Of a stretch of DNA of 64,000 nucleotides, positions 15,355 through 20,547 are shown piece by piece. Source of the DNA: a virus (Duplodnaviria; Caudoviricetes); the IMG/VR virus record IMGVR_UViG_2811995368_000001, positions 1 through 64,000 of that record; one strand, given 5' to 3'. Position numbers and translations under genes: made by a program. The notes beneath the pieces are model-generated. The model was not told the DNA's origin. It worked only from the letters and a program-made list of their open reading frames with translations, and searched no databases. Position 1 is the stretch's first letter. Each line of letters begins with the position of its first letter.

Positions 15355-16329
15355 TTACACCTTTGCGAGGCGACCGCCGATACTCGCGTTGACGTCCGAC
15401 GCGGGATTATTGACATTGAGGCAGAACAACCCATCGTTCGCCCCGTTCGCCCAATGGCCGCCGTGGTAGGCGACGCCGCCAGACCAGAACCACGAGTAGT
15501 TGCCGTAGGCCGCGTCCTCTTGCTCGTCGCGGGTCTTCTTCGGCACGAACACCGCGCCCAGGTCGAAGCCCTCGCCGACGTTGCGCAGGCGCTTGTGGAT
15601 CCAGCCATGCTCCGGCGCTTCGATGCTGGTGTTGAGCAGGTTGCGGTGGCCGTCCTTGCCCCAGATGAGGAACTCGCGGTTCGCGCTGGTCTGCAAGCCG
15701 TCCAGCATCTGCCAGACGTTACCCCAGAGGCCCGTGATGCCACGGTAGGCGGCCTGCACCACCTCGGCGTCATCGACCTTGCGCACGCCGTTTCCGTCGG
15801 TGTAGCCCTCGCCCAGAATGGACTTGACGTTGGGCGTGCCGCACTCGATCAGGGCCAGCGCCTGGATGGCCGCGAGCTGGTAGATGCTCCACAACATCCA
15901 GCCATCGCCGCGCGCGGCGGCGCGCGCCTGCATGGTGGGGAAGTCGATGCGCGCCAGCGGCATCAGGCCGGCTTGCGAACCCAGCTTGTCGTCGCCGTCC
16001 GGCGTGCCCTGGTACTTGCCCAGCCAGTATTGCGCGAGGTCGGCGCCGTGGTTGCGGAAGGCCGGATGCAGCGCGTAGCCTTCGGCGGGTTCGTCGCTCA
16101 CCCAGAGCGCCTTCTTGCCCAGCAGCGGGCCGTCGCGCACGATGTCGGAGCGGTAGTAGAAGGCCGGCACACGCACCATGCTCTGGCCGTCGATGTCCTC
16201 GTCGGCGATGCCGGCGAAAGTCGGGTGGTTGCTGAAGAAGCTGGCGTCCGGGTCGATGATGGCGCCGCTGTTGTCGATGCGCGTCCAGGGCGCGTGCTTC
16301 TTGCCGAAGACGATGCCGATTTGGCTCAT
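15355..16329 (-). CDS. C-type lectin-fold (FGE/Mtd-like) protein ending in a DGR-type variable region
   Basis: MVRVPAFYY, LHPAF, GKYQG, YRGITGLWGNVWQMLDG and C-terminal GGHWANGANDGLFCLNVNNPASDVNASIGGRLAKV; AAGGA RBS. Confidence 0.8.
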   Translation of the reverse strand: MSQIGIVFGKKHAPWTRIDNSGAIIDPDASFFSNHPTFAGIADEDIDGQSMVRVPAFYYRSDIVRDGPLLGKKALWVSDEPAEGYALHPAFRNHGADLAQYWLGKYQGTPDGDDKLGSQAGLMPLARIDFPTMQARAAARGDGWMLWSIYQLAAIQALALIECGTPNVKSILGEGYTDGNGVRKVDDAEVVQAAYRGITGLWGNVWQMLDGLQTSANREFLIWGKDGHRNLLNTSIEAPEHGWIHKRLRNVGEGFDLGAVFVPKKTRDEQEDAAYGNYSWFWSGGVAYHGGHWANGANDGLFCLNVNNPASDVNASIGGRLAKV

Positions 16330-16574
16330 GTTGATGTCCTTTGCGTTGATGGGGGTGCTTGATGGGCGGTGATGGGTTCCGGCTTTCACCATGTCCGGCA
16401 TGGGCCTGTGCGCGTTCAGGCTCGCGTCCTACTCGCTGCGTCTGGCTGCGCACGACCGCCGGGGCAGTCCCATACCAGCATCCGCTTTCGTTCCGGTTTC
16501 CACGACCTCCGGCTGGTCGAATAGACATGCGCCCGGTTTGATTCCCAGTCCAGCCTGTCAGTGGGGTCGGAAGG

Positions 16575-16650
16575 TGGTAGCGGCGGCTGGAATCGAACCA
16601 GCGACCTCCGGGTTATGAACCCGGCGAGCTTCCAACTGCTCTACGCCGCA
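16575..16650 (-). tRNA. tRNA-fMet (CAT), initiator type, CCA encoded
   Basis: TGCGGCG TA GAGC AGTTGGAA GCTC G CCGGG TTCATAA CCCGG AGGTC GCTGG TTCGATT CCAGC CGCCGCT A CCA; 1:72 mismatch, A11-U24, three G-C pairs in the anticodon stem. Confidence 0.95.
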
Positions 16651-17535: not shown

Positions 17536-17832
17536 TTACGCGGCGGCGGCCTCGGTGCTCTCGGGCGGCTCGGCCACGCGCAGGTAGGGATGCTTCTCGG
17601 TTTCCTTCTTGATGTGCTGGCTGAAGTGCGTACCCAGCGATTCGGCGCTGTCGAAGGTGGCGAAGTCTTCGGGGGTGAAGTTGCCGTAGTGGTACAGCGC
17701 GCCGTGGCTGCCGTCGGCACGCTTGAAGCGGATGGCGAGGGTGTTGGTTTCGGCGTTGTGGCCGATCTCGGCGATGCGCGAGGATTCGACCGCCTTCATG
17801 GCGATGGGACTGGCGTCAATTTGCGTGGTCAT
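17536..17832 (-). CDS. KTSC domain protein
   Basis: VESSRIAEIGHNAETNTLAIRF...LYHY...F..AESLGTHFSQHIK KTSC signature. Confidence 0.88.
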   Translation of the reverse strand: MTTQIDASPIAMKAVESSRIAEIGHNAETNTLAIRFKRADGSHGALYHYGNFTPEDFATFDSAESLGTHFSQHIKKETEKHPYLRVAEPPESTEAAAA

Positions 17833-17862
17833 GGTGGGCCTTTCGGTTGTGGTTGAGGGAAG

Positions 17863-18250
17863 CATCAGCACCGGCGACTGGGTGCAATCGGCGGTGGTGA
17901 TGGCCCTGTTGCCAGGGCATCACTCCGGCCAGACGCTGGGCCTGGCCGGTTGCGGCATTGATGCGACGTAGTGCGCGCGCCGCGCCCCTGCTATGCCCGC
18001 TGTCACGGGCGTCTCGCCCCGACTTCGCGGGGCCTGGTGCAGGTGGCTTTACTTCTGCCCGTCGTTACCTGCGCCACGGACGGGTGGGCGTTCGCAGTTC
18101 GCAAATGGCGAACAAGCGAACCGAACCTATGGTTTCAACGCAGCCCCACGGGCCACTCCCCCAGGGAGATTCGGGTTTCGCGCACTTTTGCTTCTGCCGT
18201 GCGCGCCACGGGGCAGGAGGTTGTCGCCGCCCGCTTTCGCAGGGGCCTCG
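17863..18250 (-). ncRNA. Highly structured PL leader RNA (hairpins and two pseudoknot-like repeats)
   Basis: About 480 nt from PL to the first gene without a convincing ORF; many complementary segments (see findings). Confidence 0.5.
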
Positions 18251-18269
18251 CCTCTATTCATCCACCAAG

Positions 18270-18282
18270 TTTTTAAGGAGCG
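18270..18282 (-). promoter_or_regulatory. boxA-like antitermination element
   Basis: CGCTCCTTAAAAA about 40 nt after PL, resembling lambda nutL boxA; GAAA-loop hairpin (CCTGC-GAAA-GCGGG) just downstream. Confidence 0.65.
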
Positions 18283-18325
18283 TTGCGCTTGGCAGTTGCC
18301 TGCTGTTGCGCGTGTTGTTAGGCGA

Positions 18326-18368
18326 ATCTTAGGCGACGCCTAACGATGTGTCAATAGGCAAAGCCTAA
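18326..18368 (-). promoter_or_regulatory. PL promoter with operators OL1 (18329-18343) and OL2 (18354-18368)
   Basis: TTGACA-17-TAAGAT; palindromes TTAGGCGACGCCTAA and ATAGGCAAAGCCTAA. Confidence 0.9.
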
Positions 18369-18378
18369 GATTTTTGAC

Positions 18379-18408
18379 AAAACAAAACCCGGCCATGTGG
18401 CCGGGCTT
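18379..18408 (-). terminator. Terminator of the cI operon
   Basis: Minus strand GCCCGGCC-ACAT-GGCCGGGT-TTTGTTTT. Confidence 0.8.
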
Positions 18409-18490
18409 GGGGAGGGTGAAAAATGGGAAGGTGCGAGGTGCCAGCTATGTCAGCGGCAAAGGTGGTTGTGTATCGCGGCGCATCGCGTGG

Positions 18491-18712
18491 CTACGAACTT
18501 CTGTCCATGCGGCGCTTGAGGCCGTCGCGGTAGAGAATCGCGCCGATGTCGGAAAGCGCGGCCATGTCGTCTTCGGTGAGCCGGTCTTTGGCGAGTTGCA
18601 TCCAGCTCGCCAGCTTGACGATGGCATCATCAGGTTGGGTAGGCTGGCCCGTGGCGTCTAGCACCTCGGCCCGATTCTCGAAGAGGGCGATCAGCGGGTG
18701 CAGGTTTTCCAT
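18491..18712 (-). CDS. Small hypothetical protein in the cI operon (rex position)
   Basis: GAGG RBS; lies between cI and OL. Confidence 0.6.
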   Translation of the reverse strand: MENLHPLIALFENRAEVLDATGQPTQPDDAIVKLASWMQLAKDRLTEDDMAALSDIGAILYRDGLKRRMDRSS

Positions 18713-19191: not shown

Positions 19192-19650
19192 TTAAGCCGC
19201 GTTCTTGGTCTTTTTTCTCTCGTGTAGCAGCTTGGCGGCACTGGCTTTCCATACGTTCAGTATGCCGTGCGCCGTGGCATCAAGCCAAGGCGGGACTTTG
19301 CCCACCCCAAGAATCGCATCCACGATTGCCCTGGTGGCGTCATCCGCACGCTCGTAGGCATCCCATACTGACGGTTGTTCGCTGGTCGAATCAGGGGTGG
19401 ACGCGCTACCGCTGTCCGCCGGCAATTCCTTCAGGCCCCAGTGTTCCGGCCCGACGACATCCGAGAAATAGCGCCACAACTCCGGCAGCTTTTCCTTCGA
19501 GATCGTCCCCCGTTTTTTCCAATCGGCAAGGGACGGCTGCTTCACGCCGAAGTGGCGAGCGACTTCCACTTCGCGGCTGATCGCTCCCGAAGCCTTTTTT
19601 AGTTTTATGGCCTGGGCAATAGCCTGGCCTAGTTCTTTCCCATTAAGCAT
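19192..19650 (-). CDS. CI-like repressor (HTH, no S24 peptidase domain)
   Basis: EVARHFGVKQPSLADWKKRGTISK HTH; divergent from cro across the operators. Confidence 0.85.
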   Translation of the reverse strand: MLNGKELGQAIAQAIKLKKASGAISREVEVARHFGVKQPSLADWKKRGTISKEKLPELWRYFSDVVGPEHWGLKELPADSGSASTPDSTSEQPSVWDAYERADDATRAIVDAILGVGKVPPWLDATAHGILNVWKASAAKLLHERKKTKNAA

Positions 19651-19721
19651 TGCCTAAGAATCCTCTACCGTGCATGTGTTAGGCAATTCCTATTGACATG
19701 AAATTAGGCGTCGCCTAAGAT
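19643..19721 (+). promoter_or_regulatory. PR promoter with operators OR3 (19643-19657), OR2 (19679-19693) and OR1 (19704-19718)
   Basis: TTGACA(19693)-17-TAAGAT(19716); TTAAGCATTGCCTAA, TTAGGCAATTCCTAT, TTAGGCGTCGCCTAA. Confidence 0.9.
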
Positions 19722-19729
19722 TCGTCCTT

Positions 19730-20008
19730 ATGGAACCGACCAAACACCAAAAAGCCATCAGGGAAGCGTGCCGAATCGTCGGCGGGCAGGCCGTTCTGGC
19801 CCGGCTTCTCGGGGTTTCTCCGCCCACGGTGAATCAGTGGGTATCCGGGGCACGCCAAGTCCCCGCCGAACGCTGCCCGGCCATCGAGAAGGCCACGGGC
19901 GGTGCCGTGACGTGCGAAGAGCTGCGCCCTGACGTTGATTGGGCCTACCTGCGCGGCTCTGGCGCTGCTGCAAATAACGAGACGACTGGAAGCGAGGCTG
20001 CTGCATGA
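19730..20008 (+). CDS. cro: Cro-like (YdaS family) regulator
   Basis: GGQAVLARLLGVSPPTVNQW...PAERCPAIEKATGGAVTCEELRPDVDW. Confidence 0.9.
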   Translation: MEPTKHQKAIREACRIVGGQAVLARLLGVSPPTVNQWVSGARQVPAERCPAIEKATGGAVTCEELRPDVDWAYLRGSGAAANNETTGSEAAA

Positions 20009-20088: not shown

Positions 20089-20547
20089 ATGCGCCGACCC
20101 ATCAAACAAGCTCACCGCGCCCTGTTTCTGGCCCTCCAGGCCGACGCCAAGGAATACCCTGGCGGCGTCCGCGCCATCGCCGAAACGATGGGCATGAACG
20201 GCAACACCCTTGCCAACGGCATCAACCCCGACCACGAGGCCCCGCCGCCGTCCTTCAGCGTCATCCTCGAAATCGTCGTCGTGGCCCAGGCCAAGCGCGC
20301 CATCTTCGCGCTGGCGCACCTCGTCGGGCAGGTTCCGATGGACTTTGAACTGGAAGAGCGCCCGCCTGCCGAGGCCGTGCGCCTGTTCCTGTCCTTGGTT
20401 GCGTCGGCGTCCAGCCTGTTCGGCACCGGATCCGAGGCCGCGAAAGATGGCCGCTTCGACGCCGACGAGCGCCGCCAACTTGAACCGCTGCTGCTGGGTC
20501 TGATGAAGGCCAGCGGCGAGCTTTTGCAGGCCATCCGGGGGAACTGA
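20089..20547 (+). CDS. CII-like regulatory protein (phage 186 CP76 / YmfL type)
   Basis: YPGGVRAIAETMG...TLANGINPD...AAKDGRFDADE; position after cro. Confidence 0.75.
   Translation: MRRPIKQAHRALFLALQADAKEYPGGVRAIAETMGMNGNTLANGINPDHEAPPPSFSVILEIVVVAQAKRAIFALAHLVGQVPMDFELEERPPAEAVRLFLSLVASASSLFGTGSEAAKDGRFDADERRQLEPLLLGLMKASGELLQAIRGN

Follow-up and report, generated by a model that had tools for sequence, protein, structure and literature searches.

The nut site of phage lambda consists of boxA and boxB and is bound by N and Nus factors, and boxA also protects rRNA transcripts from Rho. Lambda and HK022 both carry a left and a right site, and the put element of HK022 has two small copies, putL and putR. 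To our knowledge, RNA elements that reprogram the elongating RNA polymerase are few outside enteric phages; examples are nut, put, EAR and the LoaP leaders. Small pseudoknots are known from preQ1-I, SAM-II and guanidine-III aptamers as well as from viral frameshift sites, and the T4 gene 32 pseudoknot and the RNase III-sensitive N leader of lambda are examples of mRNA leaders under the control of proteins. Here, we describe a leader RNA encoded on the minus strand of a provirus of the Caudoviricetes (IMG/VR record IMGVR_UViG_2811995368_000001, of which positions 1 to 64,000 were analysed; this stretch is called the window). Comparison with homologous leaders predicts, with high confidence, a conserved multi-domain folded RNA that follows a promoter of the PL type and a boxA. 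A reading made from the sequence of the window alone (the sequence-only reading) had placed there an RNA domain of about 260 nt with two related H-type pseudoknots.

Relatives were gathered by a search with the KTSC protein, which is encoded by the first open reading frame (ORF) of the operon, and by pattern scans of viral contigs, species genomes and metagenomes. This gave 20 homologous leaders with the 5′ half of the RNA, 17 of which are distinct (from proviruses, metagenomes and four genomes), and one further locus, L117, that has only the 3′ half. The homologues with covariation that the sequence-only reading had asked about were therefore at hand, and all comparative counts below rest on the alignment of the 17 distinct sequences (A1). 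The full model has 55 pairs in 10 helices; 96.8% of its 932 cells are paired and 18 pairs show double-sided changes. Its pairing percentage, its number of covarying pairs and its covariation score were each reached by 0/500 shuffles, and controls in which the partners were slid by 1-3 columns were 35-44% paired. RNAalifold on A1 predicted 65 pairs, 16 of them with double-sided changes, and folding of the whole 491-nt leader gave a z of -4.47. The central parts of the RNA are:

18179-18216, minus strand: PK1, an H-type pseudoknot; both stems covary in the 17 sequences
18216-18212 with 18198-18194, minus strand: stem S1 of PK1 (CTGCC/GGCAG), 5 bp
18211-18206, minus strand: loop L1 of PK1, CCGUGG
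18205-18199 with 18185-18179, minus strand: stem S2 of PK1 (CGCGCAC/GTGCGCG), 7 bp
18193-18186, minus strand: loop L3 of PK1, AAGCAAAA, 8 nt and A-rich; there is no L2
18058-18084, minus strand: HP2, hairpin CCCGUC/GACGGG with the loop CGUGGCGCAGGUAAC, 96% paired
18046-18057, minus strand: unpaired purine-rich stretch CAGAAGUAAAGC, related to L3 of PK1; 15/17 retain CAGAA and the remainder is variable
17985-18045, minus strand: P5 domain with the long-range helix C(A)CCUGC (18045-18039) with GCAGGGG (17991-17985), from covariation

PK1 is the first of the two pseudoknots that had been proposed, and it was recovered with exactly the sequence and the position claimed for it (18216-18179). Stem S1 is paired in 100% of the cells; two of its five pairs are changed on both sides, each in eight of the 17 sequences, and these two variable pairs occur in all four combinations. 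S2 is also 100% paired, with two of its seven pairs changed on both sides (in 5/17 and 8/17) and one change from G-C to G-U (4/17). Controls with slid partners were 23-43% paired. As the 3′ arm of S1 lies between the arms of S2 and both stems pair in 17/17 and covary, this copy belongs, judged from the alignment, to the class of H-type pseudoknots. The support for it comes from covariation and not from single-sequence folding, in which PK1 could not be separated from shuffles (z -0.17, 87/200). Beside the covarying stems the loops are nearly invariant. An alternative simple hairpin, CCGTG/CACGG, had been suggested for the same copy, but this did not hold: it is 83.5% paired, a value reached by 500/500 shuffles, none of its pairs is changed on both sides, and one pair is broken in 8/17.

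The second copy had been placed at 18084-18039. The position and the first stem are correct, the pseudoknot is not. Its first stem is that of HP2, with 96% of the cells paired and three of six pairs changed on both sides, and the 15-nt loop CGUGGCGCAGGUAAC is identical in 16/17 and one base shorter in L097. Its second stem (GCAGGT/ACCTGC) is only 77% paired, has no double-sided change and a central A-U that is broken in 7/17; the U-A pair is present in the window only. The 3′ strand of this copy pairs instead with GCAGGGG in a covarying helix, and a second pseudoknot was rejected, leaving one where two related ones had been expected. The pattern said to be shared by both copies, CCGTGGCGC-N(3-16)-GGCAGAAGYAAA, was indeed found twice, with 0.00 expected in 100 shuffles. 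The long-range helix of P5 is 91.6% paired with three pairs changed on both sides; CCCC/GGGG switches to CUUCC/GGAAG, and L097, which is divergent in other respects, has GCUUU/GAAGC. Inside it lie the hairpins GGCCCCG-CGAAGU-CGGGGC and GCCCGU-GACA-GCGGGC, and the domain folds with -33.3 kcal/mol (z -3.32; 0/200 shuffles as stable).

A 44-codon ORF runs through PK1 (18261-18127). Its start codon is lost in L098 and L107, a TAG follows after five codons in L034, L042, L103 and L108, and the frame is thus broken in 6/17 overall, for which reason an N-like peptide of 44 amino acids was dismissed. The substitutions in PK1 are compensatory in the RNA and non-synonymous in this ORF. G-U cells outnumber A-C cells by 90 to 8, and due to this excess 96.8% of the cells are paired on the minus strand versus 88.0% on the plus strand. 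By this count the functional RNA strand is the minus strand, which bears out the earlier placement after the PL-like promoter and the boxA. The size of about 260 nt was an underestimate: the core measures about 310 nt, from 18263 (GGATGAA) to 17952 (TGCCGC), and hairpins extend to about 17897. Around the central parts, the following features were recognised:

18257-18263, minus strand: GGAUGAA, the 5′ edge of the conserved RNA; GGAU and AA invariant in 17/17, fifth base G in 15/17
18217-18255, minus strand: P0, a variable hairpin domain closed by GAGG/CCUC, from the alignment of 17
18121-18174, minus strand: P3 domain, in which UGG/CCA and the hairpin GUGGCCC/GGGCUGC lie inside the outer helix CCGAAUCU/AGGUUCGG, from RNAalifold
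18090-18120, minus strand: optional hairpin insert UUCGC...GCGAA, in 8/17; CGAAAG instead in the other 9
17952-17983, minus strand: P6, GCGGCG/UGCCGC enclosing the invariant CGCGCAC and GUCGCAUCAAU, from RNAalifold, 96% paired
17897-17949, minus strand: two further 3′ hairpins, CCGGCCAGG...CUGGCCGG (17949-17925) and GUGAUGCCCUG-GCAA-CAGGGCCAUCAC (17923-17897), from fold and alignment

In the window, P0 is capped by CCUGC-GAAA-GCGGG, the hairpin that the sequence-only reading had called boxB-like. Among the relatives a GAAA or GCAA tetraloop is found in 9/17 and other caps in four, and in another four (L034, L042, L103 and L108) P0 is replaced outright by GGCGC-loop-GCGCC. The hairpin is therefore present in the window, but it is not conserved, since its loop and stem vary and 4/17 are without it. 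The same reading had let a helix of GCCCCTGC with GCAGGGGC close the whole region in competition with this hairpin. GCAGGGGC lies at 17991-17984 as given, GCCCCTGC at 18245-18238 and thus one base off the 18246-18239 assigned to it. The helix is 76.9% paired, which 84/500 shuffles reach, its double-sided changes amount to two pairs (three cells), which 169/500 shuffles reach, and its 5′ arm is missing in 8/17. The competition depends on this unsupported helix, and its other partner is absent from 4/17, so that neither the helix nor the competition was retained. The outer helix of P3 is 95.6% paired with three pairs changed on both sides, and the inner helices are 100% paired with one-sided changes only; P3 also contains a block that is invariant in the first six relatives compared. 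In P6, GUCGCAUCAAUGCCG is identical in 16/17 and is present in L117, too. A pairing of GUGGCG in the HP2 loop with UGCCGC of P6 would be possible, but both are invariant and hence not testable by covariation, and it was left out of the model. The 3′ hairpin part comes in one of two alternative versions per relative. In L063, which has the alternative version, the hairpin GCCCGGUAGGCCGGGC (L063:9421-9436 (-)) is preceded by an A-run and therefore makes a good terminator-like site on the opposite strand (6 G-C pairs, then a T-run); transcripts that enter the leader in antisense could be stopped there.

A covariance model, R1, was built from PK1, P3 and HP2. With it, a single copy was detected in the window as well as in the whole provirus record (175.6 bits; the next match has 9.6 bits) and, over 21 related loci, one copy in each of the 20 with the 5′ half and none in L117. 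In L098, the most divergent relative, R1 also reports a weak HP2-like hairpin (L098:7553-7583 (-), loop UCGUGGCGAUGUAACU, E 0.07) about 1.4 kb downstream of the first; the window has no such site. Apparently, the RNA is assembled from modules. In L097 the 5′ half is retained, and the 3′ half is another one that still forms the P5 helix; L117 has kept promoter, boxA and 3′ half, and other sequence replaces PK1, P3 and HP2. In 4/17 (L100, L103, L108 and L112) boxA and GGAUGAA are separated by an HNH endonuclease gene of about 500 nt. The gene of L108 (L108:4619-5122 (-)) encodes a free-standing HNH homing endonuclease of 167 amino acids (phrog_374, E 1.1e-51). The inserted gene takes the GGTGG after boxA as ribosome-binding site, and the GGAUGAA edge is kept downstream of the insertion in these four relatives, the junction having been read in L108.

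The leader is read on the minus strand as the start of the early-left operon, and its upstream neighbour is an intrinsic terminator-like hairpin (18408-18385). The locus comprises:

18326-18354, minus strand: PL-like sigma-70 promoter TTGACA-17-TAAGAT, from a promoter scan, 10 of 12 hexamer matches
18270-18282, minus strand: boxA-like element CGCUCCUUAAAAA, in relatives CGCUCUUUAACAA, from the sequence
17536-17832, minus strand: first ORF of the operon, KTSC-domain protein, 98 amino acids, Pfam PF13619, E 4.5e-15
16575-16650, minus strand: tRNA-Met (CAT) inside the early-left operon, from ARAGORN and Rfam

A divergent twin promoter, PR-like and with identical hexamers (TTGACA-17-TAAGAT), lies on the plus strand at 19693-19721. 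The 15-bp palindrome TTAGGCGTCGCCTAA overlaps both promoters (18343-18329 and 19704-19718), and this pair probably represents repressor operators. At the same position the relatives have other palindromes; together they carry at least four different operator sequences, and thus different immunities, as well as partly different downstream genes. Beside the promoters, a Cro/YdaS-type protein (19730-20008, Pfam E 2.8e-31), a CII (CP76) protein (20089-20547, Pfam E 3.6e-16) and a candidate repressor are encoded; the latter (19192-19650, minus strand) has no Pfam match, and in PHROG it weakly matches a DNA-binding protein (E 2.6e-4). By their predicted products, the flanking genes are those of a lambdoid immunity region, and the name PL leader is fitting. 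In the loci compared, the leader RNA is always preceded by a terminator, an operator-bearing promoter and a boxA.

The exact boxA-like sequence CGCTCCTTAAAA (18282-18271) is the sole exact match within the window. It differs at two positions from the boxA 12-mer of the relatives, GCTCTTTAACAA, which is present in 23/31 genomes of the family of the host genome G001, in which the leader was found by blastn (see below); a reversed control pattern is rare there. Two of these sites were inspected, of which one (L125) is about 245 nt upstream of a 16S rRNA gene and the other (L124) has no rRNA within 2 kb. No exact 12-mer was found in G001 and G002, which are draft genomes and may lack rRNA operons. 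Going by its sequence, the boxA of the leader is of the rrn type that binds NusB/NusE. For this comparison we used what we take to be the E. coli boxA consensus. It was not found written out in PMC2800207 or PMC3177189 as far as these were searched.

Up to the start of the KTSC ORF at 17832, about 480 nt of the window are untranslated, and a terminator scan of the minus strand from the promoter to the first ORF detected no terminator-like site. The operon downstream of the leader has roughly 16 kb and includes recombination-type genes. KTSC does not stand behind every copy of the RNA: L061, L064 and L117 have other first ORFs and L067 has none. The tRNA-Met is located about 1.2 kb downstream of the leader RNA, and a tRNA also follows the RNA in L004, L034 and L108. 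A 348-amino-acid early-left protein (15355-16401 (-)) matches the 'tail protein' PHROG phrog_5302 (E 3.7e-36); this is an odd place for a tail gene, and the gene is kept behind the leader RNA in many relatives. Pieces of 17768-18287 are found in contigs from metatranscriptome libraries (four runs, each of a different study), two of which end at 18287; no contig covers 18452-19705, and we draw no conclusion from this gap. Such contigs give neither ends nor levels and DNA may contaminate the libraries, so that they are a weak hint of transcription of the leader.

What could this RNA be good for? We tentatively propose, at somewhat less than even odds, that it is part of a cis-acting module that works on the elongation complex by antitermination or by protection from Rho. 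In this proposal boxA would recruit NusB/NusE, the folded leader RNA would remain associated with the polymerase during elongation, or with its Nus factors, and termination, chiefly that by Rho, would be resisted across the long leader, which is untranslated, as well as across the tRNA and the operon of about 16 kb. Rho protection would be needed because the operon starts with about 480 untranslated nucleotides and contains a tRNA. The RNA is kept across at least four operator or immunity types and ahead of different first genes. On this reading it would be a functional analogue of nut or put sites and a member of neither class.

Several observations weigh against the proposal. On the operon strand, no intrinsic terminator was found downstream of the RNA before 2610-2592 in the window; L112 gave none and L063 a single weak one, and therefore only Rho-dependent sites could be the target. 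With 300-400 nt the RNA is far larger than nut or put. The window and the whole provirus record contain no second copy of the RNA in the rightward early operon (model R1), and a scan of the window found no boxA near PR or elsewhere in that operon. The insertion of an HNH gene argues against a fixed, nut-like composite of boxA and RNA, and since the modules are exchanged independently in L097 and L117, they may have separate functions. Finally, because the family is small (20 loci), the covariation comes from few lineages.

A connection to a described motif is made by L117. There, the first 75 nt past boxA match the Rfam family RF02917 (Burkholderiales-2) with 87.9 bits (gathering score 67.9) on the strand opposite to boxA (L117:6882-6956 (+)), and the match starts 6 nt after boxA. 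A pattern derived from RF02917 was found in 87 viral contigs. In 52 of the 72 distinct viral instances with sufficient flank, an inverted boxA 12-mer (at most two substitutions) lies 6-7 nt past the motif, versus 1/69 control stretches. Read on the boxA strand, RF02917 would therefore come first among the folded elements of a prophage early leader, and as it and the leader RNA both directly follow boxA, a structured RNA at this place looks like a recurrent design in these prophages. The strand given in Rfam may thus be inverted. The G-U/A-C count gave 92.6% versus 88.4% paired, but 63 of the 75 G-U cells come from a single pair that is fixed by the pattern; without it the values are 92.2% and 93.6%, and the strand is ambiguous. 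In 151 genomes of the order RF02917 was found 0 times, which says little since control patterns were found nowhere either, and the RF02917 model does not match the window at its gathering score, nor 17700-18500 at E≤10. The name 'Burkholderiales-2' was not found in the literature searched, and the motif is absent from the main text of PMC5737381. It is tempting to go further and to see in PK1, P3 and HP2 an RNA-only processive antiterminator of a new class, or a Nus scaffold, with a triple-helix-type pseudoknot and interchangeable as a cassette with Burkholderiales-2, RF02917 then also being a boxA-linked antitermination element modelled on the wrong strand; we consider this extension unlikely.

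The near-invariant loops of PK1 and the invariant loop of HP2, set beside covarying stems as in a site for a binding partner, would also suit a different function. The RNA might be a stand-alone non-coding RNA that is made from PL, processed from the leader and active in trans or as a protein scaffold, whereas boxA would merely shield its transcript from Rho. The RNA is kept whatever gene follows, and also in L067 in which the first genes are deleted, it has a modular build (L097, L117) and it tolerates an inserted gene between boxA and itself; the metatranscriptome contigs over 17768-18287, two of which end at 18287, hint weakly in the same direction. However, a 3′ end signal, that is a terminator-like site on the minus strand before the first ORF, is lacking, PL is the only promoter found and the RNA has no known target or partner. 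We regard a stand-alone RNA as unlikely, yet as a rival to be reckoned with.

As the RNA occupies the 5′ untranslated region of an operon that includes recombination-type genes, a post-transcriptional role in cis comes to mind, in which a protein bound to the leader would control stability, processing or translation of the early-left mRNA. Autoregulation by means of pseudoknots ahead of gene 32 is known in phages, according to the part of PMC10690425 consulted. Yet the first ORF varies, it starts 65-130 nt or more past the conserved part, there is no conserved pairing to its ribosome-binding site, and the RNA is still present after deletion of the first genes (L067) or insertion of a gene ahead of it. 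Such a role is about as likely as a stand-alone RNA.

PK1 also has the layout of a small pseudoknot aptamer, with a 5-bp stem, an A-rich third loop and near-invariant loops, and with or without HP2 it could bind a small molecule and set early-left expression as a riboswitch. This is very unlikely: no riboswitch of Rfam matches at E≤10, neither an adjacent terminator nor a sequestered ribosome-binding site is present, the second unit is not a pseudoknot, and the one candidate for a switch hairpin, CCGTG/CACGG, is not conserved. That there is no functional RNA at all, the pairing being fortuitous in DNA rich in G+C, or the conservation being owed to the 44-codon ORF or to sites at the DNA level, has a negligible probability, for although PK1 in a single sequence folds no better than shuffles (z -0.17, 87/200) and the window is G+C-rich, 18 double-sided pair changes (0/500 shuffles), an ORF broken in 6/17 and the strand bias of the G-U pairs speak against it. 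A group I intron and an HDV-like or other ribozyme were discarded because the topology is unfit and Rfam gives no match.

The preferred reading, a cis-acting element on the elongation complex, would make this RNA an addition to a short list. Rfam 15 has no match for the leader RNA at the gathering score; at E≤10, the eight weak matches in 17700-18500 all fall on the upstream terminator hairpin (18371-18478). Together with the covariation in the homologues, this agrees with the earlier view that the PL leader holds an undescribed conserved structured RNA, and literature searches gave no description of the element. Parts of the leader may be among the 8,495 candidate RNAs that PMC10690425 mined from IMG/VR.

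The hosts of the RNA form a group of betaproteobacterial lambdoid prophages. Only four of 56 matches in the scan of species genomes were true: metagenome-assembled genomes (MAGs) of Xylophilus and Zoogloeaceae, a strain of Castellaniella denitrificans (the carrier of L034) and a contig of 2.2 kb binned as Anaerolineaceae. The other 52 were dropped as chance, many of them being a conserved coding motif on the opposite strand. The contig from the Anaerolineaceae MAG (L042, identical to L069; 2176 nt) carries a typical betaproteobacterial prophage leader, and its assignment is probably a binning error. In the metagenome scan 8/18 matches were true and 10/18 were dropped as chance; the earliest scan of viral contigs, with an over-strict pattern, gave 0 matches. 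Searches by blastn with three leaders of the family against 50,697 GenBank phage records gave no match, and of the blastn matches of the leader in 401 genomes of the order of G001 only that in G001 is real, the remaining 27 (20-54 nt, E 1e-4 to 9e-3, in G+C-rich stretches) being taken as chance. The element is therefore rare.

How does it compare with the known systems? With small H-type pseudoknots PK1 shares stems set for coaxial stacking, the lack of L2 and an A-rich loop of 8 nt that faces a G+C-rich stem of 5 bp. It differs from them in that it has no Rfam match, no expression platform and no translated frame (ORF broken in 6/17); matches to the preQ1, SAM-II, guanidine-III or fluoride riboswitches were not found at E≤10, and no platform is adjacent. 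RF02917 has the same place in related provirus leaders, 6-7 nt from boxA, and in L117 it is followed by the 3′ module of P5 and P6, but it is a two-hairpin motif of 74 positions without a pseudoknot and is modelled in Rfam on the strand opposite to boxA.

The lambda-type nut site resembles the element in its position just after PL, in the rrn-type boxA and, in 9/17 relatives, in a GNRA-capped hairpin after boxA. There is, however, no conserved boxB at a short fixed distance (the cap varies and the domain is absent in 4/17), the spacing between boxA and RNA is variable, with an HNH gene between them in 4/17, the RNA has 300-400 nt with a pseudoknot, and the PR operon has no second site. An N-like protein was not recognised: the first ORF encodes KTSC, its neighbours have no Pfam match or belong to families of unknown function, and N-like proteins are too divergent to be excluded with these libraries. 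Without a conserved boxB, a recognised N or a nutR, and with variable spacing, the RNA was not classed as a nut site. With put of HK022 it would share that a folded RNA in a lambdoid early leader acts in cis, as proposed without a phage protein. The differences are one copy, a boxA and a pseudoknot here; put was compared by its description and not by its sequence. According to the consulted part of PMC9378689, put acts through the zinc-binding domain of the β′ subunit of RNA polymerase, and 'pseudoknot' and 'boxA' both occur 0 times in that part.

Altogether, we think that the element is a structured RNA in a phage early leader, beside a boxA, that works like elements of the nut or put type. 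It would then be a compact betaproteobacterial example in which a boxA is combined with a large folded RNA, a covarying pseudoknot and exchangeable modules in phages of differing immunity, and it gives the orphan motif Burkholderiales-2 (87 viral contigs) a context and possibly a corrected strand. Should its function be another one, such as that of a phage non-coding RNA or a protein sponge, it would still be a structured RNA of over 300 nt that has not been catalogued, placed where lambda has its nut site.

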